A stretch of 64,000 nt of DNA. Source: an uncultured Planctomycetia bacterium (GTDB taxonomy: Bacteria; Omnitrophota; Gorgyraeia; 2-02-FULL-51-18). The position numbers and the translations under genes are program-made. Where the stretch lies: contig CAYODQ010000003.1 of assembly GCA_964402785.1 (NCBI GenBank), positions 9,034 through 73,033 on the forward strand, given 5' to 3'. Position 1 is the stretch's first letter, and every line of letters begins with the position of its first letter. The notes beneath the pieces were generated by a model. The model ran no database searches and was not told the origin of the DNA. It was given only the letters and a program-made list of their open reading frames with translations. This document shows, piece after piece, positions 13,437 through 60,177 of the stretch.

Positions 13437-13793
13437 GTGTTTACGCTGATCGCGTACAAGGATCGCGAAGGCCGATCCCCGTTGAGAGAATATACCGAGG
13501 ATCTGCCTCGCAACCAGAAAGCCAAAATATTGGCTTATCTGGCGGTGCTCGAAGAATTTGGTTTCAGCCTTAGAAGACCCATGGCGGATAGCTTGGGAAG
13601 CAAACTTGGGCTATATGAATTAAGGCCAGGTAGGCACAGGATCCTGTATTTCTTTTATGATAGGGATACGATCGTTTTATTGCATGCATTTTTAAAACAA
13701 ACAGATGCCATTCCGCAGAGGGAACTGATTATCGCCTTGAATAGGAAGGCGGATTATTTAAAAAGAAAGGTCTCGCATGAAATCGACTGGTGA
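13437..13793 (+). CDS. Type II toxin, RelE/HigB superfamily (phage Gp49-like/DUF891)
   Basis: 118 aa, FTLIAYKDREGRSPLREYTEDLP...LGSKLGLYELRPGRHRILYFFYDRDTIVLLHAF, followed immediately by an XRE antitoxin. The listed start is a GTG. Confidence 0.7.
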   Translation: MFTLIAYKDREGRSPLREYTEDLPRNQKAKILAYLAVLEEFGFSLRRPMADSLGSKLGLYELRPGRHRILYFFYDRDTIVLLHAFLKQTDAIPQRELIIALNRKADYLKRKVSHEIDW

Positions 13794-14097
13794 AAGCTAC
13801 GAGGAGTTTAGAAAAAAAATAATAGGCGGGGACAAAAAATTGGAGGCTCAGATTCAGCTTGAGACCTCTAAACTTGAACTTTTGATGCATCTCGTCGAGT
13901 ACCGAGAAAAAAAAGGCCTGACTCAGAAGCAGTTGGCGGACAAGCTCGGAGTTAAACAACAGGTCGTCGCCCGGATCGAGAATGGCTCCAACATCACGCT
14001 TGAGACGCTCATCAAATTCCTCGCCGTGCTGGGTATCGTATTTAAAGTCGAAGCTGTCCCCCGTAAGCGCCGCGAGCAAATTTTGCAGTTTGTTTGA
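13777..14097 (+). CDS. XRE-family HTH antitoxin (HigA-like)
   Basis: HTH LTQKQLADKLGVKQQVVARIENG. It overlaps the end of the upstream toxin gene, in hig order. Confidence 0.7.
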   Translation: MKSTGESYEEFRKKIIGGDKKLEAQIQLETSKLELLMHLVEYREKKGLTQKQLADKLGVKQQVVARIENGSNITLETLIKFLAVLGIVFKVEAVPRKRREQILQFV

Positions 14098-14158: not shown

Positions 14159-14389
14159 ATGACCAAGACGACTTTTACGGAACTGAGAAAACACGCGAAG
14201 TCATATTTTGATTCTGTGGAAAATGGCGAGACCATACAAGTCCTCCGGCACGGCAAAGTGATCGCGGAGATCGTGCCTCCCCATGAAAGCCGGGATCTTA
14301 AGCCTTGGAAAAAACCAGGCCTTAAACTGAGGCTTTCGGGGGTCTCGGGCAGTAAAATGATCATCAAAGAACGCGAGGATCGCTTTTGA
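14159..14389 (+). CDS. Phd/YefM-family antitoxin
   Basis: N-terminal ...FTELRKHAKSYFDSVENGETIQVLRHGKVIAEIVP is typical of Phd/YefM. It overlaps the downstream PIN gene by 4 nt. Confidence 0.75.
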   Translation: MTKTTFTELRKHAKSYFDSVENGETIQVLRHGKVIAEIVPPHESRDLKPWKKPGLKLRLSGVSGSKMIIKEREDRF

Positions 14390-14799
14390 AGTTTTATTTC
14401 GATTCATCGGCGCTGTTCAAAAGGTATGTTTTTGAAAAGGGCAGCGATGTTGTAGATAAGCTTTTTTTGGAAGCGGATTCTATCGCGGTGAGCGCCATAG
14501 CTTTACCTGAGATCATATCCACATTGTGTAGACTGCGCAGAGAAAGGAAGCTGAGTTCCGCGCAATACGCTCGGTGCAAGCAAGCGGTCATCGATGATTT
14601 TGCCGGGTTTGATATCTATCCTCTTACTCCCGAGATCATAAGATCTTCTATGGATATTTTGGAGGCTAGCGATCTGCGCTCCGCCGATGCTATCCATGTC
14701 GCCTGCGCCATCGAAGCCAGATCCGCTCGATTCATCTCGAGCGATGCTAGGCAGATCCAAACGGCCAAAGAATTGCATCTAAAAGTAGAGTCCGTATGA
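14386..14799 (+). CDS. vapC: VapC-type PIN-domain toxin
   Basis: PIN signature: D near the N-terminus (FDSSAL), an internal ...DAIHVACAIE... and ISSD. The start overlaps the antitoxin stop. Confidence 0.75.
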   Translation: MKFYFDSSALFKRYVFEKGSDVVDKLFLEADSIAVSAIALPEIISTLCRLRRERKLSSAQYARCKQAVIDDFAGFDIYPLTPEIIRSSMDILEASDLRSADAIHVACAIEARSARFISSDARQIQTAKELHLKVESV

Positions 14800-18919: not shown

Positions 18920-19156
18920 ATGAGCGAAGCATCGGATAAGCACGAGCAATTCCTTAAAAAAGTGAATTTGTGGGTGGCAGTTCTCGCGGGACTGACCACA
19001 CTTATCGTCGGCGCCTACAATGTCAAAAACATCTTCTTCAAAAAAGAGCCCGAGCCTGTAAAAGTCGTCCAAAAAGACTCCTCCAGCGCCATCCGCGAAG
19101 CCGTAGAGGAAGTCGGCGCATCGTGGATCAAGGAACTAGCGGCCAAAAATAAATAA
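18920..19156 (+). CDS. Small single-pass membrane protein
   Basis: Extended -10 (tgctataat) and RBS ggagga upstream. One TM helix (LWVAVLAGLTTLIVGAY). Confidence 0.5.
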   Translation: MSEASDKHEQFLKKVNLWVAVLAGLTTLIVGAYNVKNIFFKKEPEPVKVVQKDSSSAIREAVEEVGASWIKELAAKNK

Positions 19157-19166
19157 AAACCCGGGA

Positions 19167-19913
19167 GTGCATATGCAATTAGGGATGTTTCCTCCCGTGT
19201 ATCATACGATCTTTGAGTCTATCGCTTATTTCATTGGATTCAGATCTTTTTTAATGTTGCGAAAAAAAAGTGATCCGATCGAAGCCTCCCAAAGAAATTG
19301 GGTGACCGCAGGAGGCGTGCTGGGAGCGGCCATCGGCTCCAAACTGATCACCTGGCTCGATGACCCTTCTCTCTTTGTTCAAAATTTGTCTAATATTCAA
19401 ATGTTGCTCGCCGGCAAGGGGATCGTCGGAGCGCTCACCGGCGGCTGGCTGGGTGTGGAGATCACCAAAAAGCTCATCGGTTTGCGCGAAGCCACAGGCG
19501 ATCTTTTTGTGTTTCCGCTCATCATCGGTATTGTGATCGGAAGGATAGGTTGTTTTGTCACCGGATTCTATGATCACACCTACGGCACGCCGACACAGCT
19601 GCCTTGGGGATTTGATTTCGGTGATGGGATACTACGCCATCCGGCTCAACTCTACGAGATCCTATTTCTGGGCGGACTTTTTATTTTCATACGCGCTCGC
19701 ATGCGATCCGCCTACGTCCAAGGAGATATTTTTAGATTCTTCATGATCGGCTATTTGTCTTTTCGGTTCATGGTCGAGTTCATCAAACCTACGCCTCATA
19801 TTTATTGGGGGCTGGATACGGTACAGGTCATCGCACTCGTTTGCTTCTGGGTATGTCGCAGATCATTTCAACCCATGTTCACCTTTACGCCTCAAACCAA
19901 GAGAGCCATATGA
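19167..19913 (+). CDS. Lgt-like prolipoprotein diacylglyceryl transferase homologue (short, divergent)
   Basis: Lgt signature blocks GRIGCFVTG (cf. GRLGNFINGE), HPAQLYE (cf. HPSQLYE) and FRFMVEFIKP (cf. FRIIVEFFRQP). It is 248 aa against ~290 for the canonical enzyme. Confidence 0.7.
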   Translation: MHMQLGMFPPVYHTIFESIAYFIGFRSFLMLRKKSDPIEASQRNWVTAGGVLGAAIGSKLITWLDDPSLFVQNLSNIQMLLAGKGIVGALTGGWLGVEITKKLIGLREATGDLFVFPLIIGIVIGRIGCFVTGFYDHTYGTPTQLPWGFDFGDGILRHPAQLYEILFLGGLFIFIRARMRSAYVQGDIFRFFMIGYLSFRFMVEFIKPTPHIYWGLDTVQVIALVCFWVCRRSFQPMFTFTPQTKRAI

Positions 19914-21301
19914 ACATCGCCGAGAGGCCTTATATTTTTTACGAGCTCACCAACAGCCTCTGCAGCCGCTGCCTCAAAAAAGTCGAGGCTAAGATCATCT
20001 TTGAGAACGAAAACGTCTATCTTCTTAAGAACTGTTTGGAACACAAGATCGAGAAAGTGCTCATCTCGACCGACATTGAATATTACAAGAAATGCCGCGC
20101 GTTCTTGAAGCCCGCCCAGCTGCCCAAGCGCTTCAACACCGCCACTGTGCATGGTTGTCCCTACGATTGTGGGCTGTGCCCCGATCACGAGCAGCATAGC
20201 TGCTTGACACTCATAGAGGTCACGGACCGCTGTAATCTCGAGTGCCCTATTTGCTACGCGGGCTCGTCTCCCTCAAGCGGCCGTCATCGGACACTGGATG
20301 AGATCGAATTCATGATGGATGAGCTTGTGAAAAACGAAGGCGAGCCGGATATTGTTCAGCTGAGCGGCGGTGAGCCGACTATCCATCCTCAATTTTTTGA
20401 GATCATGGATCTTGCAAAGCGAAAGCCCATCCGGCATCTCATGGTCAACTCCAATGGCGTGAAGATCTCCCAAGATCGCGAGTTCTGTAAAAAACTGGCT
20501 GGTTATATGCCGGGATTTGAAGTGTATCTTCAATTCGATAGTTTAGAGAAAAATCCTCTCGAAGAAATACGCGGGCTGGATCTGCGCTCGGTGCGGCTCA
20601 AAGCACTTGAACATCTGAATGAATTCAATATTTCTACCAATTTGGTGGTCACCGTCAAAAAAGGCCTCAATGACAAGGAGATCGGGAAGCTGATCGAGTT
20701 CGCGCTCAAACAGCGCTGTGTGCGCGGCATCACTTTTCAGCCCATACAGGCGGCCGGGCGGCTCGAGCAATTTGACCCGGCCAAAGATCGGCTGACCCTG
20801 GCGGAGGTGCGCCAGCAAATATTAAAACAATCTAAGGTTTTTAAACCCGAAGACATCATCCCCGTCCCCTGTCATCCCGATTGTATCGCCATGGCGTACG
20901 CACTCAAGATGGACGGAAAAGTGATCCCGCTCACGGGACTTATGGATCCGCAGGTTCTGCTCAAAGATTACCGAAATACCATTCTTTACGAACAGCAACC
21001 CAATATCAAATCCAAGGTATTTAGTTTATTTTCTCTGAATCATTCACCCAAGTCGACATCGCATGCGGTGCATGATCTCTTGTGTTGCCTGCCCAAGGTC
21101 AGCACCGACCAGAACCTGTCATATGATAATATTTTTAGGCTGACGATCATGGAATTCCTGGATCCTTATAATTTTGACGTGCGCTCGGTCAAGCGTGCTT
21201 GTGTCCACATCGCGCATCCGGATGGCAGAATAATTCCATTCGACACTTATAATATTTTTTATCGCGACAACAAAATCAACGTGACTTCACTGGCCCAATA
21301 A
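19910..21301 (+). CDS. Radical SAM enzyme with extra N-terminal Cys clusters (Cx2C...CxxH; CPYDCGLC; then CNLECPIC)
   Basis: Canonical CX3CX2C (CNLECPIC) plus GGEP. A second upstream CX3CX2C (CPYDCGLCPDH). A zinc-ribbon-like CSRC...NCLEH. C-terminal Cys (PCHPDC, LLCC). Its start ATG overlaps the Lgt stop (ATGA). Confidence 0.75.
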   Translation: MNIAERPYIFYELTNSLCSRCLKKVEAKIIFENENVYLLKNCLEHKIEKVLISTDIEYYKKCRAFLKPAQLPKRFNTATVHGCPYDCGLCPDHEQHSCLTLIEVTDRCNLECPICYAGSSPSSGRHRTLDEIEFMMDELVKNEGEPDIVQLSGGEPTIHPQFFEIMDLAKRKPIRHLMVNSNGVKISQDREFCKKLAGYMPGFEVYLQFDSLEKNPLEEIRGLDLRSVRLKALEHLNEFNISTNLVVTVKKGLNDKEIGKLIEFALKQRCVRGITFQPIQAAGRLEQFDPAKDRLTLAEVRQQILKQSKVFKPEDIIPVPCHPDCIAMAYALKMDGKVIPLTGLMDPQVLLKDYRNTILYEQQPNIKSKVFSLFSLNHSPKSTSHAVHDLLCCLPKVSTDQNLSYDNIFRLTIMEFLDPYNFDVRSVKRACVHIAHPDGRIIPFDTYNIFYRDNKINVTSLAQ

Positions 21302-21313
21302 AAGCAGAAAAGG

Positions 21314-21727
21314 ATGATTATGGATAGCAGATGGATAAATGACCTGTTTACACGCTCAATATTACTGATCCCTGTTGCTATCGGATTTGGTTATGCATTT
21401 ATCTTGAGCAAGTTACCGGCCAAAAAGGAAGCCGGTGATGGCAAAGAAGTTAAAAGGGGTATCCTTTTGGTGCTCATGGGCCACATCACCGTCTTTGGCT
21501 TTTTTGCCCTCAGCAGCAGAGGCAATGAATTCATCCGCTCCATTACAGAGGCCATCAAAGCCTATTCAGCCTTTATTTTTCTAGCACAGCTGGCATACGT
21601 GATCCCCTTGCTTATCGCAGCCGCAGCCAAAGGCCGAGGCGGCATCATCAAAGGCGCCTTGATAGCCTCCAGCCTGACATTTTTATTATCCGTTGTTTCA
21701 TGTTTCGGACTTGGTGCTCTGAGATAA
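21314..21727 (+). CDS. Small 4-TM membrane protein
   Basis: Hydrophobic 137 aa, directly downstream in the same orientation. Confidence 0.5.
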   Translation: MIMDSRWINDLFTRSILLIPVAIGFGYAFILSKLPAKKEAGDGKEVKRGILLVLMGHITVFGFFALSSRGNEFIRSITEAIKAYSAFIFLAQLAYVIPLLIAAAAKGRGGIIKGALIASSLTFLLSVVSCFGLGALR

Positions 21728-21774: not shown

Positions 21775-22044
21775 GTGCATAAAATATTGCGCATCGTATT
21801 TCTGGTGGTGGCCTTATGCGCTTGTGTCCAGTCCCTGGGCATTGATGAGGCCTTTTGCTGTGATTCTGCCGGCGAAAGCGGCTGCCGAGATTGCGCCGCC
21901 TGTTCTCATCATCCATTGGCAGCATCAGAGATGTCCGGGGTAACACCAGAAGCTATTTCCGGCGATCGTCTTTTTGCGAAGTATTCTTTTCAGTATTCAC
22001 AATTTGTCCCTCTGCAGATCCTCCGCCCTCCGATTCACGCCTAA
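21775..22044 (+). CDS. Small secreted Cys-rich protein (possible metal-binding)
   Basis: GTG start with a GGAGG RBS, a signal-peptide-like N-terminus, and a CCDSAGESGCRDCAACSHH cluster. Sits upstream of the OMP-znuA-znuB genes. Confidence 0.35.
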   Translation: MHKILRIVFLVVALCACVQSLGIDEAFCCDSAGESGCRDCAACSHHPLAASEMSGVTPEAISGDRLFAKYSFQYSQFVPLQILRPPIHA

Positions 22045-22095
22045 AATTTTATTCCGTTTTATTTGATTCGTTATTCTTAATTCAAGGAGTCTCTA

Positions 22096-23273
22096 TGAAA
22101 CTGTTGTTTATTGGGCTGATGCTATTACTTGGGACGTCGTCACCAGCGAAAGCCGAGCCGGATCTGGCATCCCAAGTGGAAGATCTAAAAAAGATCGTCT
22201 CGGAGCTGCAACAAACAGTCGTGCGACAGCAAACCGAGATCGATGCCCTCAAGTCGAAGCAACCTGCCATCGAGCCTGTCGCGGCAACTCCATCAGCCGC
22301 GGTGGGGCCGCCAGGATCCGCCACTCGTGGGCGCTGGAATCCAGACATTGGTGTCATTGCCGACACGGTGCTCAAGTTGGATAGCGCCAAAACCGACACA
22401 GGTGGATCGGATCGTATCAGTGTCCGTGAACTGGAGCTGGTGATGGGCAGCGCTGTGGATCCGTATTCGCGCTTTGATGCGAGTATCGGCTTCACGGATC
22501 TGGAGGAGGTTGAGTTGTCTGAAGCGTATCTTACGCGGTACGGCTTGCCGCTGGGAGCTACGGCGCGTATCGGGCGATTTAATCTTAAGGCCGGAAAATC
22601 ACTGGCTGCACACCGGGATATCATCGAAACTGTGGACTATCCACTCGTGATCCGGCGCTATTTTGGCGAAGATGGTTTGCATAAAACCGGCCTCGATCTG
22701 ACGGCGCCTCTGGATCTGCCTGTAGACTCTGCACACGAGATCGTTGTGGGTGTCACCGAAGGCGGCAGCGGTGAAGGCGGCCTCGCGTTCGGAGATACCC
22801 GCAGACGACCCACGTTTTACAGTCATCTGCGGAATTTCTGGGATGTGAATGATGTGACCACTTTTGAGCTGGGAGCTACCCATATGGCGGGCTCGGAGGA
22901 TGCGGATAGCGCCTTTGAAACCAACATCGGAGGGCTGGACGGGACATTTCTTTATTTGTATGGCCCGGATCAGCGGCTCAAACTTCAAAGCGAGTTGTTT
23001 TATTTGAACAATGACGAAGCGCCCGATGAAACGCTGTGGGGAATGTACACGATAGCCGATGTGCGTTTTCACAAGCAGTGGTCCACTGGTTTTCGGTATG
23101 ACCATGTCGATGACGACAATGGTTACACCGGATACGTGACCTTTCACCAGACGGAATTTGCTCGATGGCGCCTTCAGGCGACCCACACCGATATTGCAGA
23201 CGGAGAAGATGATAACCAGATCATGGTTCAAGGCATCTTCTCCATCGGCGAACACAAACATAAACTAGCATGA
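22096..23273 (+). CDS. Outer-membrane beta-barrel protein with N-terminal coiled coil (porin-like)
   Basis: RBS aaggag. Signal peptide MKLLFIGLMLLLGTSSPAKA, then a coiled-coil segment and alternating beta-strand patterns. The start was chosen at 22096, not the ORF-track extension at 21891. Confidence 0.6.
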
Positions 23274-24256
23274 GGAAAAAAATGAAAAATACGATCCGAT
23301 TATTGCTGATCCTGGGTATCTTGTGCAGCCCCGGCGAAACAGCTTATACACATGAAGGCCATGGACGTGAAGAAGTGCCGGCATACGAGGGACCCGTCCA
23401 AGCCATCAGTGGAAGAAAATTAAAAATCGTCGCCACGACCACGACATTTGCCAGCCTCGTACGAGCTATCGGCGGAGATGCGGTGGAAGTCAAAGCGATT
23501 TCACTTCCGAAATTCAACACGCATTTCTTTCAGCCAAAATTCAGTGATGTGCGGAATGTCCAAAAAGCGGATCTTTTTGTGCAAGCCGGACTGGATCATG
23601 AGCTATGGACAGAAGCCATCCTGGAAGCCGCCGGAAAACCCGATCTTTTCCGCGGAGCCGAGGGCAATATCCCGATGTCGGACGGGATCAAGCTTCTGGA
23701 TGTGCCGACAGGCCCTCTCTCGAGAGCCGAAGGTGATGTGCATATTTTTGGCAATCCACATATTTGGATGAGCCCTGAAAATGCGCGCATTATGGCGCTT
23801 AATTTGCTGGAGCGGCTCAAAAAACACAACCCCGAAAATGCGGCCTTGTATGAAGCCAATGCAAAAGCGTTTCTTGCTGAGCTGGATCAAAAAATTCCCA
23901 TGTGGAAACAAAAGGCAGCTGGCACCAGCGGTAAAGAAGTGGTTTCCTATCACAAAGATATCGCATACTTTGCGGATTTTCTCGGGATCAAGGCGCTGCG
24001 TTTTTATGAGCCCAAGCCCGGGATACCGCCCAGCCCGAAAGAGCTGATCTCGCTGGAAAAATACATCAAAGAAAATAGTATTAAAGCCTTGGTGCAGCCG
24101 GTTTATTACTCGCGCGAAGCCACGGATGCGCTAGCCAAACGGGCGGGCGCCAAAGTGTATATCATCTGTCAAAATGCCGGGGAGATCCCGGGAACGGATG
24201 ACTACATCAGTTTATTCGACTACAACGTAAACACTATCAGCGAGGCCTTGAAATAA
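23270..24256 (+). CDS. znuA: Metal (Zn/Mn) ABC transporter substrate-binding protein, ZnuA/TroA family
   Basis: Cluster-9 SBP features (HIWMSPENA, YHKDIAYFADFLGI) and a signal peptide. Confidence 0.8.
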   Translation: MRKKMKNTIRLLLILGILCSPGETAYTHEGHGREEVPAYEGPVQAISGRKLKIVATTTTFASLVRAIGGDAVEVKAISLPKFNTHFFQPKFSDVRNVQKADLFVQAGLDHELWTEAILEAAGKPDLFRGAEGNIPMSDGIKLLDVPTGPLSRAEGDVHIFGNPHIWMSPENARIMALNLLERLKKHNPENAALYEANAKAFLAELDQKIPMWKQKAAGTSGKEVVSYHKDIAYFADFLGIKALRFYEPKPGIPPSPKELISLEKYIKENSIKALVQPVYYSREATDALAKRAGAKVYIICQNAGEIPGTDDYISLFDYNVNTISEALK

Positions 24257-25072
24257 ATGACCGACTTTATCCAATTTATGATGTATCCGTTTTTGGCTTG
24301 TTTGATCTTGACCGGCATCCACACGTATCTGGGACAGCATGTGATCGAAAGACAGGTTATCTTCGTTGACCTGTCGCTTGCTCAAATCGCAGCCCTCGGG
24401 GCGAGCATTGCGCTGGTTCTGGGGCATGAGCTCAGCAGTCCTTTGTCATACTGGCTTTCTTTGGCCTTTACCATCATCGGTGCGCTGGTTTTCGCCTTTA
24501 GTCGATTCAAGAAACAGCTCATCCCGCAGGAAGCTGTGATCGGTGCGTCTTACGCAGTATCTGCGGCTTTGCTGATCCTGGTCTTAAGCCTTGCAGACGA
24601 GGGTGACGAGCATATTCGTGAAGCGCTGATCGGAAAACTACTGTTGGTCACGGACATGGAAGTATTGAAAATGTTTTTGATCTATGCCGCTATCGGTTTA
24701 TTTCACTATATTTTTCGGAAGAAATTCTTTCTGATATCCAAAGATCATGAAGAAGCCTCCAAGCACCTTAACGTGCGTCTGTGGGATTTTTTGTTCTACG
24801 TTTCCTTTGGCATCGTGGTCACAAGCTCGGTGAAAGTAGCTGGCGTCTTGTTGGTTTTTTCGTTTTTGGTGATCCCGGCATCCTGCTCGCTTATTTTTGC
24901 CCGCACGATCAAATCGCGGCTCATCGTCGGATGGGCGATCGGATTCTTGGCGAGTGCGGCTGGTATGGCGGCTTCGTACGTGTGGGATTTACCAACAGCT
25001 CCCACGGTCATATGTCTTCTGGGAGCGGTATTGTACGGTTCGATCTTTCTTAAACGCGGACATTCTCAATAA
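24257..25072 (+). CDS. znuB: Metal ABC transporter permease, ZnuB family
   Basis: ABC-3 family 8-TM pattern. No ATPase gene follows. Confidence 0.75.
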   Translation: MTDFIQFMMYPFLACLILTGIHTYLGQHVIERQVIFVDLSLAQIAALGASIALVLGHELSSPLSYWLSLAFTIIGALVFAFSRFKKQLIPQEAVIGASYAVSAALLILVLSLADEGDEHIREALIGKLLLVTDMEVLKMFLIYAAIGLFHYIFRKKFFLISKDHEEASKHLNVRLWDFLFYVSFGIVVTSSVKVAGVLLVFSFLVIPASCSLIFARTIKSRLIVGWAIGFLASAAGMAASYVWDLPTAPTVICLLGAVLYGSIFLKRGHSQ

Positions 25073-37176: not shown

Positions 37177-38004
37177 CTAATTCGAAACACCATTCTCAAT
37201 ATATATTTGAAAGTTCGTCACCAATAACTCTAAAAAACTCTCTCTTCTTGCTGGATCTGCAGCAATCCCACTAAACCTCGAGATTTCGTTTTTATAGAAC
37301 TGACCATCATAAAGTTCCTTTATCATAGGATGAGCTGCATTACTTACTATGACGTACGCTCCCCTATTACTCAAGCTGGCGGCATATTTAGATAGTCGTA
37401 ATTCATCGATCTGCGAAAACAGCTTTGAGTTATACTTAATAAACCCATTTTTTAAATGGCTTGTCACATAAGGTGGATCAAAATAGACCAAGTCCTCCTT
37501 CTGTGCATCTTTAACGACATCTTCGAAGTCTGCGCAGACGATTTTTGAATTCTTTAGTAATCGACTTGCTTGTCGTAGATGTTCCTCCTGATATACCAGC
37601 TTATCCTTTGTGAGGTTACCGCTAGGCACATTAAAATTTCCTTTATTATTCACTCTATAGAGGCCATTCCAGCAGGTTTTGTTCAAATATATGAAGTATG
37701 CCGCGCGCTTTATGTAGTCTGCTTTCGAGTAGCTATGATCTCTAATTTTATAATATGTGTCTTTATCAACTTGTAGTCTCTTTAGAATTTTTATAACGGT
37801 GTCACAGTGTCTCTTCACCTGCTTATAACAATTGATGAGATCGGGATTCGTATCAGATAGGACTGATTTGGGGGGTTCTAATGCAAAAAATAGACAGCCA
37901 CTGCCTACAAACGGCTCGTAATAGGTCTTATATTCTGGTAGGCGATCCTTAATTAAAGGTGTTAACCATCTCTTTCCGCCTGCCCACTTAAGAAATGATA
38001 GCAT
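37177..38004 (-). CDS. Dam-family N6-adenine DNA methyltransferase
   Basis: LKWAGGKR...FVGSG (motif I) and DPPY (motif IV). Confidence 0.85.
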   Translation of the reverse strand: MLSFLKWAGGKRWLTPLIKDRLPEYKTYYEPFVGSGCLFFALEPPKSVLSDTNPDLINCYKQVKRHCDTVIKILKRLQVDKDTYYKIRDHSYSKADYIKRAAYFIYLNKTCWNGLYRVNNKGNFNVPSGNLTKDKLVYQEEHLRQASRLLKNSKIVCADFEDVVKDAQKEDLVYFDPPYVTSHLKNGFIKYNSKLFSQIDELRLSKYAASLSNRGAYVIVSNAAHPMIKELYDGQFYKNEISRFSGIAADPARRESFLELLVTNFQIYIENGVSN

Positions 38005-38891
38005 TAGAGCTTAATAACCATTTTCTGCCGCGCCCTATAATCTGTTACTGCATCTTCTGATTTTATAGAAGAAACCATATCCGATATTTGTGCAAAAGCC
38101 TCAGCCGAAACCAATCGTCGTAATCGCGCTCTTTCGCTGTCGCCCTTTTTGTTAATTAATGAATAAAATAAATTGTATAATGTTTTGAATTCCGTGTTTC
38201 CGGATATCGATTCCTCCGGCCCTATAGCTCTGTACAATCTAATATTATCCTTGGTAGTTAAGGCAATGCACATATTTGAAAATGCGGTTAATTCGCGCTC
38301 GTTTATTGATGCGCGGAAAAAGTCACGAGATACAGCATCCGGTTGATTTATCGTTTCGTATAAACTGTTCATAAAAGATCGTATGCATTTAATTATAGAC
38401 CCAAACTCCTTTAGATGCTTTGATTTGTCTAAGGCCTTTCCGAGTCTTCCATGAGAGTGCTTCTGTTTAACATTGTGAATATACTCCCTAAATTTTCTTG
38501 GGGAATCTGTTCTGGCGTGGCCATATATCTGCTCCAAGGCCTCATGTGGCAATTGCTTCCTAACTTTCTGCGCTGGGTCAATGAGGGGAAGTATCTCTGT
38601 TAAATAACTTAGTGATCTAATGCCTCCAACATCACGTAAAATATCATCTCTGGACTTCCAAATTGACCTTATCTTATAGCTTCGAAATATAGTAGGCCTC
38701 TTTATTAAGCCTCTGGTTTCTTCTTGCACTGCCCAACCTAATTGATGTGGCTTTTTTACACCCATTTGGAAAAGCTTGTCACCTATTTGCCACAAAGTTT
38801 CGACCTTAGTCCGCGTCGATGACCGGGGATCTCGATAATAATTATTCAAACTTGCAATCTGCGCTATGACATCTTTGGTATTTTTAGTCAT
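38004..38891 (-). CDS. Hypothetical protein (295 aa), operonic between the GHKL ATPase and the methyltransferase
   Basis: No recognisable motif. Its start/stop abuts or overlaps its neighbours. Confidence 0.5.
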   Translation of the reverse strand: MTKNTKDVIAQIASLNNYYRDPRSSTRTKVETLWQIGDKLFQMGVKKPHQLGWAVQEETRGLIKRPTIFRSYKIRSIWKSRDDILRDVGGIRSLSYLTEILPLIDPAQKVRKQLPHEALEQIYGHARTDSPRKFREYIHNVKQKHSHGRLGKALDKSKHLKEFGSIIKCIRSFMNSLYETINQPDAVSRDFFRASINERELTAFSNMCIALTTKDNIRLYRAIGPEESISGNTEFKTLYNLFYSLINKKGDSERARLRRLVSAEAFAQISDMVSSIKSEDAVTDYRARQKMVIKL

Positions 38892-40568
38892 TTATTCTAA
38901 AGTGTGTTCGATTTCTTCGTTAAGAACCGTTGCCGCAAGTTCTTGCTCCAACCGCAAACCCAGATCTATTACATTTGAACCAACCTCAAGCGGAGTAGGA
39001 ACTTTTCCTCTTCGCTCAAATAATTTATGGACACATTCAGGTGAAATAACCATTGATACATAGTTCAATAGCCTTGTATCTAATTTAATCTTTCCTGACT
39101 TACTAGAATTTCGCTTTATAAAATCAGAGTGCTGTGTGTTTATTACTAAAGAATTACCTAGATTTATAACTCTGTCTGCTCCTGCATGATTTTGAAACTC
39201 AATCCGAGGACCCGTCGCTTGTATGGTCTGATCTTTTGATAGGCCTTCCCCCGATGACTTTGATTTTTGTTTATTTCCGCCGCCTTTTTCGTCATCACCT
39301 AGGCCGTTTTTGCCGCCAACCGCAACTTCACCGCCACTCCCCTGATTATTTGGGCCGGAGCCGCCACCTCCAATTTCATCTCCGCCAAATGGAATACTTC
39401 CAAGATCCTCCATAATTTTCTTTTCATACTCTCCGGGCATCGTTGATGGAGCCATTTGTTCGTATTGTAACTTAAAACCGCGCATTATTCTGGATAGGCA
39501 GTCTGACATTATGCTACTTAGCTTCCGAAATGACTCTTGAGTTTTCGAATCCATTACTTTGTCTATTAGGGTTTCAATATCCTTTTGAACCTCCAAGATA
39601 TTTTCATACAACAGATCACGAGCCGGAGAATCCTTTATATCATCCCTCGTAAGATTAGGTGAGCATATATCGTTAATTTCAATAGCACCAACAACAAACG
39701 GATTTGACCAGACCAATATGTCCCTTCCATACTCTCGAGCGTAATTTTTATAACTCTTAAGATCAGCGATACTTTGAATTCTTCTTTGTTTATTGGTTAG
39801 AACGGGAAGTCTATTCTCCTGCACTTTTTCAAGAACTCTCAAATCTATGTTAATTTTCTTTGTCTCATCAGGTAATGATAATGCTATTTCCTTTTTGTAA
39901 GGAGTCCCAGCATATGCGCCGTGGTTAAAGGCCTGGCACTCATATTTTTTTGGGCTGCCGTCGGAAACAAATATCTTTATGATTCCCGCCCTCAGAACAT
40001 CATCAAAATGACGTTCTATCTCGAATACCAGCGCTTTGAGAAATATAGTTTTTTTAAAAACTTGGGGATCGAACTTTGATATCGTGACTCTGGTTCCTGG
40101 CTTATCAAGCTGTTTTCCGTCTGTAATCTCACAAGGCACTTCCACATTCTCGTCAAATGATCTATCGATACGTATTCTGGCCTCATCTGTTCCCTTTTTC
40201 TTACTTATAAATATAGCTTCTTTGGCGAATGCCCTAAAAGCATGTACACCGAATCCAAACTGCCCATTAGCCCAAGGAACTGTCTTTTTCTTCGAGCGAC
40301 CTACCTCCGAAAGAAGCTCTCCCAACTCAGGAGGCGACATCCCGCCACAATTATCTGTAAATGATACTTTCTTACTGACTAGATCTACTTGGATTTCTAA
40401 AATTGGCTTAATTAATTGGCCTTTTTCCTTCCCAATGGATGCAGCATCTACCGCATTATCGATATATTCCATCGCTGCCCTAAAAAAGTCTTTGTAAGTT
40501 CCTGCAATCTGATTCAAGAGCTCGTGTTGGTCACGGATTTTGAGTTTGGTTTTTAAAGCAATTTTCAT
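38892..40568 (-). CDS. GHKL/Bergerat-fold ATPase, MORC/MutL-like (HATPase_c_3 type)
   Basis: N-box EYIDNAVDA, G1 DNCGGM, G2 GQFGFG. Long C-terminal region with a Gly-rich linker. Confidence 0.7.
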   Translation of the reverse strand: MKIALKTKLKIRDQHELLNQIAGTYKDFFRAAMEYIDNAVDAASIGKEKGQLIKPILEIQVDLVSKKVSFTDNCGGMSPPELGELLSEVGRSKKKTVPWANGQFGFGVHAFRAFAKEAIFISKKKGTDEARIRIDRSFDENVEVPCEITDGKQLDKPGTRVTISKFDPQVFKKTIFLKALVFEIERHFDDVLRAGIIKIFVSDGSPKKYECQAFNHGAYAGTPYKKEIALSLPDETKKINIDLRVLEKVQENRLPVLTNKQRRIQSIADLKSYKNYAREYGRDILVWSNPFVVGAIEINDICSPNLTRDDIKDSPARDLLYENILEVQKDIETLIDKVMDSKTQESFRKLSSIMSDCLSRIMRGFKLQYEQMAPSTMPGEYEKKIMEDLGSIPFGGDEIGGGGSGPNNQGSGGEVAVGGKNGLGDDEKGGGNKQKSKSSGEGLSKDQTIQATGPRIEFQNHAGADRVINLGNSLVINTQHSDFIKRNSSKSGKIKLDTRLLNYVSMVISPECVHKLFERRGKVPTPLEVGSNVIDLGLRLEQELAATVLNEEIEHTLE

Positions 40569-40577
40569 TGGATCCTC

Positions 40578-41909
40578 CTAGTTTCCTGCAAGTCGATATT
40601 TTGTCCCACTACCCTCTCCCACACGAACTATTTCCTTTGTGGAAATTAACATACCTAGCAAGCGATAAGTTTTTGGCGGCTTTATTCCGCATTCATATGA
40701 AATTTCAACCGAACTCAATGAGCCTGCCTTGCAAAGGCATTCTCTAATCTGATCTAGATTCTGCATTCTAACTATAAATGCCAATCGTCTTCTTTTTTCA
40801 AAAGCTAGCCTTGATACCTCTGGTAATTCTCTTTTTGGCCTAACAATATTTAATTCGCTCCTAAACGCATCAATCGAGCCCCATAGGCGGCGTATCCTCA
40901 TAGTAAGATACCGCCATCCACTTTTTCTTTGCATTTCAGTGGTTGATGGCACATGTCCAAGTTCTGCTTCGATATTCCTATGAAGCTCAATACACTCATT
41001 CTTTTGAGCATCCAACCTAATCTTTTCAAGTTCATCGTCGGTAATGCCATATGCAGTAAGCAGTTTCTTTAAATATGCGACTGAGATACGGTTTGATTTA
41101 GCAGCTTTACTCAGGCTCATGCCATCTGAATAGCTTTTTATAATCGCTTCTTTGGAAACAAATGGGTACTCATAGCCCGTGTATTTAAATAACCCAAGAC
41201 GCGTACCTTTGACCAAGATCTGCCTAATTCTCTCGCGCGTTAGATCCATAGTTTTGGCGACACTTTCGAGAGTGCCCTGTTGTTCATACAGGTAGAAACA
41301 TTCCTTGTAGAACTTTATCCGGTCTGCCCCAATAACCTGATTTTGAAGATTCTCAAGCGTTTTTGCTTTTGCCGGATATTTTTCTTTGAACTGACCAATT
41401 AGATCGGTCGGATTATTTGTTGATTGAATATTATTTTCGATTTTTGATATTATTTCATCGCTTAATTTCATTCCCAGCTTTAAATCTAATTGGTTAAGAA
41501 AAAATTGAATATCTCTCGCGCATTTTTTTCCTGCATTTTTTTGATTTAATATTCTTTGCTCAGTAAGGCGCACTAAATCTTTAATCGAAACAACCTTGAG
41601 CTTATCAAGACAGTTTCTGACTCTAACGGAAAATAATACTTGGGATACTGGAATTGATAACACTGTCTTCTGATAATCCAGGCTCTCCAATGCGTCGGAG
41701 GCATTCTTTTTATGTATCAGATCTATCGACTTTTTTGGTTTATACTCTTTACAAAATTGACGAATTTCTAATACTGTTTTTTTACCTAAATTTTTTATTG
41801 AATACAGCTTCCTCTCACTCAGACCAAGGCATTCCTCGACTGTTTTGTACCCCGCCGATCTTAGCGCGTTCATAGCACGAACTGACAGATTTGTGCTTCG
41901 AATATCCAT
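40578..41909 (-). CDS. Multi-HTH DNA-binding protein: two RpoA alpha-CTD-like HhH modules + sigma-70 region-4-like HTH + C-terminal wHTH
   Basis: LSVRAMNALRSAGYKTVEEC and VRVRNCLDKLKVVSIKDL (alpha-CTD-like). VAKTMDLTRERIRQILVKG (sigma region-4-like). Confidence 0.5.
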   Translation of the reverse strand: MDIRSTNLSVRAMNALRSAGYKTVEECLGLSERKLYSIKNLGKKTVLEIRQFCKEYKPKKSIDLIHKKNASDALESLDYQKTVLSIPVSQVLFSVRVRNCLDKLKVVSIKDLVRLTEQRILNQKNAGKKCARDIQFFLNQLDLKLGMKLSDEIISKIENNIQSTNNPTDLIGQFKEKYPAKAKTLENLQNQVIGADRIKFYKECFYLYEQQGTLESVAKTMDLTRERIRQILVKGTRLGLFKYTGYEYPFVSKEAIIKSYSDGMSLSKAAKSNRISVAYLKKLLTAYGITDDELEKIRLDAQKNECIELHRNIEAELGHVPSTTEMQRKSGWRYLTMRIRRLWGSIDAFRSELNIVRPKRELPEVSRLAFEKRRRLAFIVRMQNLDQIRECLCKAGSLSSVEISYECGIKPPKTYRLLGMLISTKEIVRVGEGSGTKYRLAGN

Positions 41910-53519: not shown

Positions 53520-56030
53520 TTATTTCTCTTTGGTGGAACTGCTTTCAGGCACTTCCGGCAGATTATCATCATCTTCCGGCTCCACCTTTGCAAGAGCTGT
53601 CACGATGTCATTGGCTTTTTTGAGATTAATAAGCCGTACACCCTGCGCCACACGGCCGGTTTCGCGGATATCTTTGACCGAGGTGCGCACTGACATACCT
53701 TCCTTGGTCATGACCATGAGATCGTCTTTATCGGTGACGCACTTCACGCCCACCACTTCGCCGTTTTTATCGGTGACTTTAATATTGGTGACACCTTTTC
53801 CGCCGCGAGATGTGATGCGATACTCATCTATCTGTGAGCGCTTTCCAAAACCTTTTTCTGTGACGGATAGAAGGGTCGCTTTTTTATCCACGACCTCCAT
53901 ACCCACAACATAATCCTTGGCTTCCAAGTTCACGCCACGAACACCGCCTGCGCTGCGGCCCATGCTCCGCACAAATGATTCGGGGAAGCGGATAGCTTTG
54001 CCTTTGCGGGTCGCGATGAATATTTCAGACTTTCCGTCGGTGAGAGCCGCTTCGATAAGCTCATCTTTCGGATCCAGGCCGATGGCGAGGATGCCGTTAC
54101 GGCGGGTATTCTCAAATGCGGTGAGGTCGCATTTCTTGATCTGACCAAGCTTGGTGGTCATAACCAGGAACTTACCTTCTTCAAACTTGCGCACAGGAAT
54201 ATAAGAAGTGATCTTCTCGCCCTGAGCCAATGACACGAAGTTCGTCACAAATTTACCCTTGGCTTGACGGCTAGCCTGAGGCAAGTCGTACACCTTGATA
54301 CAAAACGCTTTGCCGCGAGAGGTGAACAGCATGAGATTGTCATGTGTGGACGCTACGAAAAGATGCTCCACAAAATCTTCCTCTTGCTGGCCAGATGTTA
54401 CGCCGACACCGCCGCGTTTTTGTTTACGATAAGTAGTCACCGGTAAACGCTTCACATAATTTTGATGACTGATCGTGACGACAACGTCCTCGTCTGCGAT
54501 CAGATCCTCAATATTAAAATCCGTATCCGCATCGCGCGTGATCTCGGTGCGACGAGGATCGCCGTATTTTTCTTTGAGCGCCTTGGTCTCTTCTTTGATG
54601 ATCTCCAATACTTTTTTATCGGATTTGAGGATAGACTCGAGATAGTCGATACGTTTATTGAGCTCTTTATTCTCTTCCTGAAGCTTATGTATTTCCAGAC
54701 CCGTCAGCTTCTGTAGCTGCATTTCCAGGATCGCCTGAGCCTGTTTGTCCGAGAACTCGAACTTCTCGACCAATTGGACTTTGGCTTCTGCTGGATTTTT
54801 GGATGCACGGATCGTCTTGATGATCTTATCGAGAATGTCGACAGCTTTGATCAAACCTTCAACGATATGTTGACGCGCCTTGGCTTTCTCGAGATCGAAT
54901 TTGGTTCTACGAATGATGACTTCTTTGCGGTGCAGGATGTACTGCTCGATGATCTGTTTGAGATTAAGAACCTTGGGACTGCCATCGACCAGCGCCAACA
55001 TGATGATACCGAATGTCGACTGAAGCGCCGTGTGTTTGTACAGTTGATTCAGGATCACCTGCGCATTGGCGTCACGCTTAAGATCGATGACCAAACGCAT
55101 ACCATCTTTATCAGACTCATCCCGAACGTCAGAAATGCCTTCGATCTTTTTATCGTTTACAAGATCCGCGATGTTCTCGATGAGGTTGGACTTATTCACC
55201 TGATAAGGGATCTCGTTGATGACCAGCGCTTGCTTACCGCCCTTGAGCTCTTCGATGTTTATCTTGGCACGTATTTTTACGATCCCGCGACCGGTATTGT
55301 ATGCGGACTTAATGCCCTCGGTGCCGCATATCATGGCGCCCGTCGGAAAATCTGGGCCCTTGACATACTTTAAAAGCTCTTTGATTTCGGTCTCCGGGTT
55401 ATCAATGACCGCCGTGATGGCATCCACCACTTCTCCGAGATTGTGCGGAGGAATATTGGTGGCCATACCAACGGCGATACCGCTCGAACCGTTACAAAGA
55501 AGATTCGGGAGCACGGCCGGTAAAAGTGTCGGCTCCTCGAGAGACTCGTCAAAATTTGGAGCAAAGTTGACCGTGTTTTTGTCAATATCACCCAAGATCT
55601 CGCTGGTGATCGCAGCAAAGCGAGCTTCGGTGTAACGCATGGCGGCTGCATTATCACCGTCCACGGATCCGAAGTTGCCCTGACCGTCGACAAGCGGGTA
55701 TCGAAGAGAAAAATCCTGCACCATACGCACCAGCGTGTCATACACAGCGGTGTCACCATGGGGATGGTATTTACCAAGCACTTCACCGACGATACGAGCA
55801 GATTTTTTGTAGGGACGATTATGCTCCAGACCCAGCTCTTTCATGGCATAAAGGATACGCCGATGCACCGGCTTTAAACCATCACGCACATCGGGCAAAG
55901 CGCGACCGACAATAACACTCATGGCGTAATTTAAATAAGAGTCTTTCATTTCCCTCTCGATCATCACCGGCCTTACTTTTCCGGTGAGAGAAGGATTTGC
56001 TGCTGAAGGTATGGGTTTTTTTTCGGCCAT
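53520..56030 (-). CDS. gyrA: DNA gyrase subunit A
   Basis: N-terminal gyrA motifs (AAMRYTE; active-site Tyr region). Confidence 0.95.
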
Positions 56031-56032
56031 GA

Positions 56033-58863
<2,831 letters not shown>

Positions 58864-58892
58864 TTCATTTGGTGCTTTTTATCTTCACCGCA

Positions 58893-60017
58893 TCAAGTGA
58901 CTTGCATGGGCAATACGATATAAGTGTAATCATCCCCGCTTTTGATAACGGCCGGCTTCTCTGGATCTATAAAACTAAATCGAACATGCTCTTCTTCCAC
59001 ATTTTTGAGCACATCGATCAAGAAGCCGGGATTAAATCCGATCACAAACTCACCACCCTTATAATCTACTTCCATCTCTTCACGAGCTTCACCCAGATCC
59101 GGCGTGCTTTTAGTGATGATCATCCTGTCTTTAATGATATTGATCTTCACGGATTGCGAATCTTGATTCGTTAAGATACTGGCTCTTCGTGTGGCTTGTA
59201 AAAAATCCTGTGTATTTAAACTCAACTCTTCCTTTGTTTTTTTGGGGACAACCTGTTCATAATTCGGGAATTCGCCCTCTATTAAACGCGATGTAATATT
59301 AATGGCACCCAAATTAATAAGAAGTTGATTATCTTTGAAATAAAAATTTACATCCCCTTCTTCTCCTAAGCTACGGTTCAATTCCTGGATCGTTTTCATC
59401 GGCACGATCATATCTTTTTTAAGAGCACCCAATTCCGGGATATCTTTTTGAATGATCGCCAAACGTCTTCCATCCGTCGCCACCATCTTCAAAGCTTTAT
59501 CTTTAAAACTAAATAGAATCCCGTTCAATATATATCTAGTTTCATCATGACTCATTGCAAATGAAGTAAGCTGGATCATACTCTTTAATTTTTTCTGAGG
59601 GATCTTAATACAATCAATTCCTTTGGAATTGTTGGATGAAGGCACTTCCGGTAATTGAGGGAAATCTTCGCGCGGCAACCCATTTAAACGAAAATAGCTT
59701 TTTCCACACTCAATACTGACGGAATTACTTTTTTTAACCGTGATATGGATAGTTGGAGAAGCTTGTAGTTCTTTTACGATCTCACTAAATTTTCTAGCCG
59801 GGACTGTGATCGAACCTTCTTCAATAACTTCCCCTTCGATTTTAACCGAAACACCTATCTCAAGATCTGTCGCTGTTAACCTAATTTCATTCTTTTTTGC
59901 TTCCACCAATATATGGGAAAGAATGGGTAAACTATTTTTAGAGCTAACCGCATTCTGAACCGTTTGAATTCCTTTGAGCAAACTATCTTTATTGGTATTT
60001 ATCTTCATTATCAACAA
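58893..60017 (-). CDS. dnaN: DNA polymerase III beta sliding clamp
   Basis: 374 aa, three-domain clamp pattern. Confidence 0.9.
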   Translation of the reverse strand: MLIMKINTNKDSLLKGIQTVQNAVSSKNSLPILSHILVEAKKNEIRLTATDLEIGVSVKIEGEVIEEGSITVPARKFSEIVKELQASPTIHITVKKSNSVSIECGKSYFRLNGLPREDFPQLPEVPSSNNSKGIDCIKIPQKKLKSMIQLTSFAMSHDETRYILNGILFSFKDKALKMVATDGRRLAIIQKDIPELGALKKDMIVPMKTIQELNRSLGEEGDVNFYFKDNQLLINLGAINITSRLIEGEFPNYEQVVPKKTKEELSLNTQDFLQATRRASILTNQDSQSVKINIIKDRMIITKSTPDLGEAREEMEVDYKGGEFVIGFNPGFLIDVLKNVEEEHVRFSFIDPEKPAVIKSGDDYTYIVLPMQVT

Positions 60018-60082
60018 CCCCTTTTTATCTTTTAAATTAATCTCTCAAGCAAATCAGTTTTAGTCATAGAGCCTGTGTTTAC

Positions 60083-60160
60083 TGTGGATACTTCATAACT
60101 CTTTATTTATCAATACCTTAAAAATCTAATAACCTGTGGATAAGGTTGGGTTTATCCACA
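60083..60160. promoter_or_regulatory. DnaA-box cluster between dnaA and dnaN (oriC part)
   Basis: TGTGGATAc at 60083, TGTGGATAA at 60135 and TTATCCACA at 60152, in an AT-rich stretch. Confidence 0.7.
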
Positions 60161-60177
60161 GATAGCTGACCTTAAAA

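Follow-up and report, generated by a model that had tools for sequence, protein, structure and literature searches.

The stretch of DNA analyzed here, 64,000 nucleotides of contig CAYODQ010000003.1 from an uncultured Planctomycetia bacterium (hereafter called "the window"), carries three consecutive genes, which encode a short paralogue of the prolipoprotein diacylglyceryl transferase Lgt, a radical S-adenosylmethionine (SAM) enzyme resembling the tetraether synthases GDGT-MAS and Tes, and a small membrane protein with a conserved cysteine. We conclude with high confidence that this trio is one functional unit. For its role, we favor, at somewhat less than even confidence, a module of three genes, complete in itself and spread horizontally, whose targets are a phosphatidylglycerol-type lipid and a dedicated small membrane protein. 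What would be new is a unit that unites Lgt-type lipidation with Tes-type radical chemistry; both superfamilies are already known. A sequence-only reading of this DNA had singled out the first two genes as a pair. The pair stands, but the small membrane protein that follows was overlooked as the third conserved component, and it is probably the substrate.

The conservation of the gene pair across genomes carries the argument for a unit. A scan of one genome per species yielded 80 loci in which the radical SAM protein is 56–87% identical to that of the window; the open reading frames (ORFs) in these loci were called mechanically. The Lgt-like gene adjoins the radical SAM gene in 75 of the 80 loci, and four of the five misses are contig ends, so that adjacency is seen in 75 of the 76 loci where it can be tested, spanning at least 14 phyla. 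The carriers are found among the Planctomycetota (including the closest relative, 87%), Melainabacteria, Sericytochromatia, Nostocales, Bacillota, Bacteroidota, Chlorobiota, Alpha- and "Delta"-proteobacteria, Myxococcota, Elusimicrobia, Verrucomicrobia, Acidobacteriota, and Peregrinibacteria, and in one complete Woesearchaeota genome. Gene overlaps of 4 or 1 nucleotides (nt) are common in these loci. The gene order is reversed in some Obscuribacterales, and the genes diverge in three loci (two Myxococcota, one Pseudomonadota). The adjacency thus outlasts rearrangement, which argues for functional coupling. Look-ups that took the Lgt-like protein of three cultured strains as their starting point recovered the same layout in all three, in agreement with the earlier claim that the pair is conserved in relatives. 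The layout is also carried by a plasmid of Chondrinema litorale, where the genes are annotated as "prolipoprotein diacylglyceryl transferase family protein", "radical SAM protein", and "hypothetical protein"; other cultured carriers include Crinalium epipsammum PCC 9333, Paenibacillus, Neobacillus muris, Flavobacterium, Maribacter, and Zobellia. No further conserved partner emerged: among 109 flanking genes compared with Pfam, no family recurred more than three times, and therefore neither a protease, an exporter, Lsp, Lnt, nor a regulator belongs to the unit. A search of a viral contig collection found no relatives that would point to carriage by phages.

Two of these loci deserve separate mention. 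In a Saprospiraceae metagenome-assembled genome (L040, CAKZSH010000271.1), the only locus with full flanks in this state, the 6 kb around the radical SAM gene contain neither the Lgt-like gene nor a small Cys protein; the genes may be split up in this genome, or the copy may be decaying. In the complete 1.54-Mb genome of a Candidatus Woesearchaeota (CP060218.1, L041:4947-7392), the trio has its gene for the small Cys protein (97 residues) upstream, together with those for the Lgt-like protein and the radical SAM enzyme. According to a 2025 paper (PMC12462473), archaea have so far yielded no Lgt homologues. The archaeal trio looks like a horizontal acquisition, or the genome has possibly been misassigned.

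What accompanies the pair? Directly downstream, there is almost always a gene for a small membrane protein of 55–250 residues with two to four helices. These proteins share a tail module: a Lys/Arg-rich loop, an uncharged helix, a small residue at position −2 or −1, the cysteine, and 2–14 mostly hydrophobic residues up to the C-terminus. In the Cys-anchored alignment, the last Lys or Arg lies 16–20 residues before the cysteine, the intervening segment is hydrophobic and uncharged, and a Gly, Ala, or Ser is found at −1 or −2 in 90 of the 94 copies. The tail of the window protein reads ...KGRGGIIKGALIASSLTFLLSVVSC-FGLGALR, in which a last helix of about 17 residues is followed by a small residue and the conserved cysteine. 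A first, stricter motif rule had found the tail in 52 of 81 loci, and a hidden Markov model (HMM) built from 52 loci gave 95 Cys-aligned matches among about 7200 ORFs of at least 35 residues from all loci. All but one of the 95 lie on the same strand within 1.6 kb downstream of the pair, although 52 of these 94 are circular—they come from the training set of downstream ORFs—and the other 42 are new loci or extra tandem copies. At least one copy occurs in 62 of 82 loci, and two to four tandem copies occur in 22. Inspection of the loci missed by the model revealed visibly similar small proteins below its threshold in six (L008, L009, L037, L035, L080, and L028), and the motif inside a longer protein in three (L005, L006, and L046). 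In three Sericytochromatia loci (L049, L053, and L057), the element lies upstream of the Lgt-like gene and is N-terminal: a signal-peptide-like segment and a cysteine, followed by a Pro-rich stretch of about 32 residues. The Woesearchaeota protein, too, is encoded upstream.

The small proteins belong to no known family and are too divergent for ordinary searches; a word-index homology search retrieved only three close relatives. A profile built from the window protein and these three homologues, when compared with 1.84 billion representative proteins, recovered 35 further relatives, 33 of which have the cysteine. These distant relatives share QLxYxxP in the preceding helix as well as TFLLNxxC, and one of them (P0254) adjoins the radical SAM gene on an unrelated metagenome contig. 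From the basic loops, the cysteine is predicted to face outward, in the geometry of a lipoprotein signal peptide. The small four-helix protein of the window is the third component of the unit and, as we propose from its sequence, probably the substrate.

The Lgt-like protein, judged by sequence criteria, is not the housekeeping Lgt. The Pfam LGT model (PF01790) matches its residues 21–228 with 79.7 bits (cut-off, 24.9), and the protein falls below all of the NCBIfam Lgt equivalog cut-offs (TIGR00544, 43.2 versus 118.9 bits; NF000778, 47.6 versus 334), as do the Flavobacterium and Paenibacillus members of its family. The only Protein Data Bank match of its AlphaFold model (pLDDT 89.5) at E ≤ 0.001 is E. 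coli Lgt (5AZB), with a TM-score of 0.61. Residue conservation was read from an alignment of 75 family members with what we take to be the E. coli Lgt sequence, the residue numbering of which agrees with the published positions. In that numbering, the phosphatidylglycerol-binding arginines R143 and R239 are both conserved in 75 of 75 members; G142, G145, G154, R195, and P197 are invariant; H196, Y201, E202, and Y235 are mostly conserved; and position 243 is Glu or Asp throughout. The RHPAQLYE block is also present in the window protein. The family is set apart by a cysteine in place of N146 in every member, by a hydrophobic residue at the position of E151, and by the loss of the periplasmic head domain: about 23 residues (roughly 166–188 of the E. 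coli protein) have no counterpart, and the window ORF encodes 248 residues as compared to 291. According to a 2026 study, Y26, H103, R143, N146, G154, and R239 are absolutely required in E. coli Lgt, and R143 and R239 have the phosphatidylglycerol-binding role (PMC13251419); the family retains R143, G154, and R239. Its basic loops align with the cytoplasmic ones of E. coli Lgt, from which we expect the same topology and an active site that faces the outer leaflet. From these residues, the protein is plausibly an active diacylglyceryl transferase with an altered acceptor side. The low equivalog scores, the family-specific active-site substitutions, and the lost head domain uphold the earlier statement that this is no ordinary housekeeping lgt arrangement. 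The 64-kb window contains no second lgt. Natural fusions of the Lgt-like protein were considered and rejected: the extensions of the long ORFs are non-homologous, of low complexity, and N-terminal to the Lgt-like region, and were read as artefacts of choosing the first start codon.

The radical SAM protein has, as far as its sequence and model indicate, the architecture of GDGT-MAS, but it belongs to a clade of its own, in which the second active-site cluster is rewired. Pfam recognizes the Radical_SAM (81.9 bits) and Zn_ribbon_HMPTM (53.5 bits) domains. Among the NCBIfam models, TrsS (NF045646) scores highest and matches end to end (model positions 3–435 of 441), with 320.9 bits against a cut-off of 490, and Tes (NF045702) reaches 293.8 bits against 450, with the match limited to residues 14–320. 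Both cut-offs are missed, and the protein is therefore placed by these scores within the TrsS/Tes superfamily, outside either named family. When solved structures were searched with phmmer, the only strong match was GDGT-MAS from M. jannaschii (7TOL; E = 2.4e-69), in two stretches spanning residues 13–453. The AlphaFold model (pLDDT 77, with low confidence at residues 359–401) superposes on 7TOL over the whole chain (TM-scores 0.77/0.72, about 499 alignment columns), and the next structures reach at most 0.39. The phmmer match and the fold match bear out the proposed tetraether-synthase-type radical SAM enzyme. The alternative that had been offered with it, a maturase for peptides that are made on the ribosome and modified after translation (RiPPs), fares less well in its classical form, since no SPASM/twitch family is close: SPASM has no Pfam match, the SPASM/twitch models of NCBIfam score at most 52 bits and only through the core, and the maturases SuiB and SkfB superpose with TM-scores of about 0.37–0.39. 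A defence role was also considered and dropped, as PADLOC shows merely generic viperin-core similarity for this protein.

The rubredoxin-like, N-terminal, and radical SAM sites support this assignment. Conservation was counted over 80 family sequences, where the column was covered. The rubredoxin-like site has the layout of that in GDGT-MAS, C9X2C12X20C33X2H36 (PMC9433317). The GCPYDCGLCPDH segment of the window enzyme aligns with GCPYDCGLCPNH of GDGT-MAS in the phmmer alignment, where C73, C77, and C80, together with one His, bind the [Fe4S4]N cluster (PMC9433317). In the C-terminal domain, C321, C392, C393, and C431 are invariant in all 80 sequences, H433 is present in 78, and I434 in at least 97%; the window protein has a further cysteine, C325. 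The position of the labile Met439 of GDGT-MAS, M414, is conserved in 69 of 80 sequences, with the aligned cysteine C431 invariant, in a protein whose model is of low confidence at residues 359–401. By analogy with GDGT-MAS, the substrate is very probably hydrophobic and lipid-like.

The coordinates of the trio and its motifs are collected in the table. The ATGA coupling of the first two genes, the cysteine motifs, and the downstream four-helix ORF reported by the sequence-only reading are all present; the corrections are minor and concern the probable start codon and the last ORF, which belongs to the unit and is no bystander. The ORF of the Lgt family extends from 19167 to 19913 (+), which gives 248 residues from a GTG, as seen in the ORF list and by direct reading of the sequence. 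The likelier start is the ATG at 19173 behind GGGAG, giving a 246-residue product, and the database gene call P0121 has 246 residues and is 100% identical to the window protein. Twelve nucleotides separate the stop codon of the radical SAM gene from the third ORF on the same strand.

Positions in the window of the three genes and of the sequence features discussed in the text
Feature	Positions	Strand	Basis
Lgt-like membrane enzyme, short, head-less	19173..19913	+	Pfam LGT, AlphaFold model, P0121
GRIGCF, variant of the Lgt signature GRLGNF; R126 = E. coli R143, C129 = N146	19539..19556	+	75-member alignment
R200 and E204 = E. coli Lgt R239 (second phosphatidylglycerol-binding arginine) and E243 (its partner)	19764..19778	+	75-member alignment
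ATGA overlap of the Lgt-like stop codon (TGA) and the radical SAM ATG	19910..19913	+	Direct sequence reading
Radical SAM enzyme, GDGT-MAS/Tes architecture, 463 residues	19910..21301	+	Pfam, NCBIfam, phmmer, fold match
Rubredoxin-like metal site C18-x2-C21...C42-x2-H45	19961..20044	+	C18 and C21 in 79/79 covering sequences; C42 and H45 in 80/80
Predicted N-terminal auxiliary [4Fe-4S] motif C83-x3-C87-x2-C90, H93/H96, and family-invariant C98	20156..20203	+	All invariant in 80 sequences
Radical SAM cluster motif C108-x3-C112-x2-C115 (CNLECPIC)	20231..20254	+	Invariant in 80 sequences; aligned to CNLNCPIC of 7TOL
C-terminal domain, presumed second auxiliary cluster site: C321, C392-C393, M414, C431, H433, I434	20870..21211	+	80-sequence alignment
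Small four-helix membrane protein, 137 residues (135 if the ATG at 21320 is the start)	21314..21727	+	ORF reading, relatives in the loci
Signal-peptide-like tail: basic loop (K106, R108, K113), last transmembrane helix, S-V-V-S-C130 (codon 21701-21703), 7-residue tail	21629..21724	+	Cys-anchored alignment

How could the three proteins act together? The small protein would insert with its basic loops in the cytoplasm, placing the cysteine of its last helix at the outer leaflet, as with the lipobox cysteine of a lipoprotein precursor. Lgt enzymes act on a cysteine at the outer end of a helix after a basic stretch, and the simplest view would make the small protein the dedicated acceptor of the Lgt paralogue. 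By homology and from its retained residues, the head-less paralogue would then move the diacylglyceryl group of phosphatidylglycerol to this cysteine as a thioether. Judging from the sequences, we put the chances that the cysteine is lipidated in this manner at about even. The acceptor-side substitutions in the Lgt-like enzyme appear to match the non-canonical residues before the cysteine, and the tandem copies, as well as a module that may sit at the C-terminus, inside the protein, or at the N-terminus, fit a substrate recognition element.

The radical SAM enzyme would work from the cytoplasm. GDGT-MAS binds two lipid tails and forms a C–C bond via a cluster–sulfur–carbon intermediate, and the lipids that it binds and converts have a phosphoglycerol head group (PMC9433317). 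Such a lipid is the archaeal counterpart of the Lgt donor phosphatidylglycerol, and we therefore propose that the radical enzyme remodels the acyl tails of the donor lipid. With its homology to GDGT-MAS, it could use 5′-deoxyadenosyl radicals to functionalize unactivated carbons in the fatty-acyl tails of this lipid, whether it is still free phosphatidylglycerol or has already become the anchor. A C–C bond—giving a macrocycle or a lipid–lipid link—or a C–S bond would be the likely result. In the more economical order, phosphatidylglycerol would be modified in the inner leaflet, then flipped and transferred. Overall, a small membrane protein would result whose lipid anchor has been remodeled by radical chemistry. 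The most far-reaching form of this proposal is a novel protein lipidation, in which the dedicated Lgt paralogue S-lipidates small membrane proteins with a diacylglycerol whose tails are cross-linked by the tetraether-synthase-like enzyme; we regard it as rather unlikely. It would give a macrocyclic or membrane-spanning anchor, or a protein–lipid–protein link, in a system spread horizontally over at least 14 phyla, including the Peregrinibacteria and one Woesearchaeota genome. If true, bacteria would apply lipid chemistry of the archaeal C(sp3)–C(sp3) type to a lipid bound to protein.

Several observations weigh against the proposal that the Lgt paralogue lipidates the small protein and the radical enzyme remodels the anchor. 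The Lgt site and the cysteine face outward, the radical SAM enzyme must be cytoplasmic, and the same atoms are out of their simultaneous reach. Three of the six residues essential in E. coli Lgt are altered in the family: Y26E in 67, H103V in 56, and N146C in all of the 75 members. The N146C exchange also occurs in the Lgt of L. interrogans, which partly complements E. coli, and in the second homologue of M. smegmatis; H103 is generally poorly conserved among Lgts, and both H103 and N146 vary in some functional ones (PMC13251419). A strict lipobox, [LVI][ASTVI][GAS]C, is present in only 7 of the 94 tails, although VVSC of the window complies. About 8 of the 82 loci have no recognizable small Cys protein, two of the 35 distant relatives lack the cysteine, and the tail-model count is partly circular, as stated above. 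In the radical SAM enzyme, the C-terminal cysteine pattern differs from that of GDGT-MAS, where C321, C392, and C393 have no counterpart, and Ile434 (at least 97% of the 80 members) stands at the position of Tyr459, which is completely conserved in 1000 archaeal homologues of GDGT-MAS (PMC9433317). Finally, the additional conserved positions in the small-protein subfamily, QLxYxxP and TFLLN, would also fit an enzyme subunit.

This last point leads to a pure lipid pathway, in which the radical SAM enzyme would couple fatty-acyl tails, as Tes and Mss do, into macrocyclic or membrane-spanning lipids, the Lgt-like enzyme would move diacylglyceryl or glycerol units between lipids, and the small protein would be a scaffold or anchor of the radical enzyme instead of a substrate. 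The full-length homology to GDGT-MAS and the retained phospholipid-binding arginines agree with such a pathway as well as the helix motifs do, and bacterial Tes homologues have been proposed as the makers of membrane-spanning lipids (PMC8941075, PMC13459092). However, the sole near-universal feature of the small proteins is a cysteine placed as in a lipoprotein signal peptide, their tandem copies and their N-terminal signal-peptide version suit a substrate better than a subunit, and the Tes equivalog cut-off is missed. The carriers Flavobacterium, Paenibacillus, and Nostocales are not known for membrane-spanning lipids, and the Peregrinibacteria and Woesearchaeota, both carriers, are lineages known for small genomes with little lipid synthesis of their own. 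We consider a pure lipid pathway fairly improbable.

To the same degree, we are disinclined to see a lipopeptide or RiPP-like system, in which the small proteins would serve as precursors whose peptide is modified by the radical SAM enzyme in the cytoplasm (for example, by a thioether or other cross-link at or near the cysteine), the Lgt-like enzyme would add a lipid, and a short lipidated C-terminal (or N-terminal) peptide would be released as a signal or toxin. Short, fast-evolving genes in tandem copies beside a radical SAM gene are what such a system would look like, and so are conservation limited to a short motif, post-cysteine tails of only 2–14 residues, and the Sericytochromatia versions, with a Pro- and Cys-rich "mature" part of about 35 residues. 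Yet the radical enzyme has no SPASM domain, twitch domain, or RiPP recognition element and resembles the maturases in the core barrel only (TM-score about 0.37), neither a protease nor an exporter is conserved among the 109 flanking genes, the small proteins are mostly polytopic and thereby unlike leader–core peptides, and the residue before the cysteine is usually other than the small one preferred by signal peptidase II. An ordinary arrangement, with a housekeeping lgt beside an unrelated radical SAM gene by chance, or with the old pterin-methylase annotation being correct, can appeal to the Pfam LGT domain, to the window having no second lgt, and to the names in use: some sources have "prolipoprotein diacylglyceryl transferase" and, at JGI for some members, "7,8-dihydro-6-hydroxymethylpterin dimethyltransferase". 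It is contradicted by the co-occurrence of the genes, adjacent in nearly every testable locus across phyla and in variable order, and the Lgt scores far under the equivalog cut-offs, the family-specific substitutions, and the missing head domain also speak against it. In addition, the pterin-methylase assignment of MJ0619 could not be corroborated by the group that identified this protein as GDGT-MAS (PMC9433317). We regard this explanation as extremely improbable.

The trio lies in a chromosomal window adjoining the replication origin, with dnaA, dnaN, gyrB, and gyrA in a row at 53520-61548 (−), among functionally unrelated genes: a P-type cation ATPase, an aspartyl protease, a porin-like gene with ZnuA/ABC-3 metal uptake, and a Phd/PIN pair. 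A promoter and terminator scan of 18.4–22.2 kb gave counts no higher than in shuffled sequence, and the sole Rfam match over the window is a tRNA-Glu. Just upstream, a 78-residue ORF with one hydrophobic helix (18920-19156, +) stops 10 nt short of the GTG at 19167, the mechanical start of the Lgt-like ORF; it has no homologue in the related loci and no family match. Downstream, at 21775-25072 (+), an 89-residue ORF with a signal-like N-terminus and the Cys-rich stretch CCDSAGESGCRDCAACSHH is followed by a porin-like ORF of 393–460 residues, for which no family match was obtained, and by the ZnuA/ABC-3 pair; the 89-residue product may be a small metal-binding or regulatory peptide of the metal-uptake operon. 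The Phd/PIN genes at 14159-14799 (+) overlap and encode a Phd/YefM antitoxin (76 residues) and a PIN-domain toxin (137 residues), forming a type II toxin–antitoxin pair, and a helix-turn-helix-like ORF of 106 residues lies just upstream (13777-14097). An AT-rich island at 37177-41909 (−), with a GC content of 0.39–0.40 as compared to about 0.50 elsewhere, encodes a Dam-like D12 N6-adenine methyltransferase, a 295-residue ORF assigned to no family, a GHKL-type ATPase (HATPase_c_3), and a 443-residue protein matching the RNA polymerase alpha-CTD and sigma-70 region 4; it is possibly an acquired restriction or defence island. The GC content also drops to 0.41–0.42 at 58–62 kb, near the origin genes.

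The function of the bacterial Tes homologues is an open question, which matters for lipid biomarkers such as brGDGTs (branched glycerol dialkyl glycerol tetraethers). A large and highly conserved bacterial Tes-like clade now gains a concrete context, in the form of a predicted phosphatidylglycerol-using transferase and a predicted Cys-bearing acceptor. Since bacteria have an Lgt-linked Tes-like clade, a Tes-like gene in a bacterial genome should not be taken as evidence of tetraether synthesis. Lgt, in turn, has so far been regarded as one enzyme with housekeeping duties and as a target for antibiotics; if true, a specialized paralogue that is widespread and has its own substrate would extend the lipoprotein paradigm. 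The system is tractable, as it has only three genes and cultured carriers are available.

The earlier claim that the pathway is undescribed agrees with what the databases and the literature returned. No Pfam, NCBIfam, or PADLOC model is specific for the trio, and the RefSeq names are generic. Full-text literature searches, in which the description of TrsS itself did not figure, turned up nothing relevant on an association of Lgt with a radical SAM enzyme, and neither Lgt nor diacylglyceryl transfer comes up in a 2026 review on the radical SAM enzymes that modify lipids (PMC13459092). There is a real chance that the chemistry is new.

As compared to E. coli Lgt (5AZB, TIGR00544), the paralogue has in common the seven-helix fold, the predicted topology, and R143, R239, G142, G145, G154, Y235, and E243, and its putative acceptor resembles a lipoprotein signal peptide in the basic stretch, the hydrophobic helix, the small residue, and the cysteine. 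It differs by its length of about 245 residues without the head, by Y26E, H103V, N146C, and the hydrophobic residue for E151, and by its scores below the equivalog cut-offs. In contrast to the whole lipoproteome served by Lgt, the genomic context points to a single dedicated acceptor encoded in cis, whose cysteine is mostly at the C-terminal end of a polytopic protein and seldom within a strict lipobox.

With GDGT-MAS/Tes (MJ0619, 7TOL/7TOM), the radical SAM enzyme shares the four-domain architecture, the fold over the whole chain (TM-score 0.77), about 31% identity, the rubredoxin-like CX2C...CX2H and radical SAM CX3CX2C motifs, a nearly identical N-terminal GCPYDCGLCP(D/N)H with CX3CX2C and His, and, mostly, the Met439 position. 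In contrast, it belongs to a bacterial clade with 56–87% internal identity across phyla, its C-terminal cysteines are rewired (C321, CC392/393, and C431), Ile replaces Tyr459, and the Tes cut-off is missed. Moreover, the members of its clade have an Lgt paralogue and a small Cys protein as partners, and Tes does not. The separation from TrsS, a family of radical SAM (seleno)proteins, is made by the model score—an end-to-end match at 320.9 bits, below 490—and, by sequence, the clade appears to be a sister of TrsS; the window enzyme has no selenocysteine. Mss of the Thermotogales and the bacterial Tes homologues proposed for brGDGTs, which were compared by their descriptions only, have in common a radical SAM enzyme for which bacterial fatty-acyl tails are the proposed substrate, and neither an Lgt partner nor a Cys protein is reported for them (PMC13459092, PMC8941075).

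A more distant relative, 37% identical, is encoded on a plasmid of Mycolicibacterium vanbaalenii (L083, NZ_CP126902.1, 2309-6339) and likewise scores below both cut-offs (TrsS, 335 bits; Tes, 324 bits). A gene for an ArsM-like methyltransferase of the DVU_1556 family lies downstream of it, CcdA and a thiol–disulfide oxidoreductase are encoded upstream on the opposite strand, with an Rv1681-family radical SAM gene beyond them, and no Lgt paralogue is among its partners. The partners therefore differ between the sub-clades of the superfamily, and the pairing with an Lgt paralogue and a small Cys protein marks the clade of the window.

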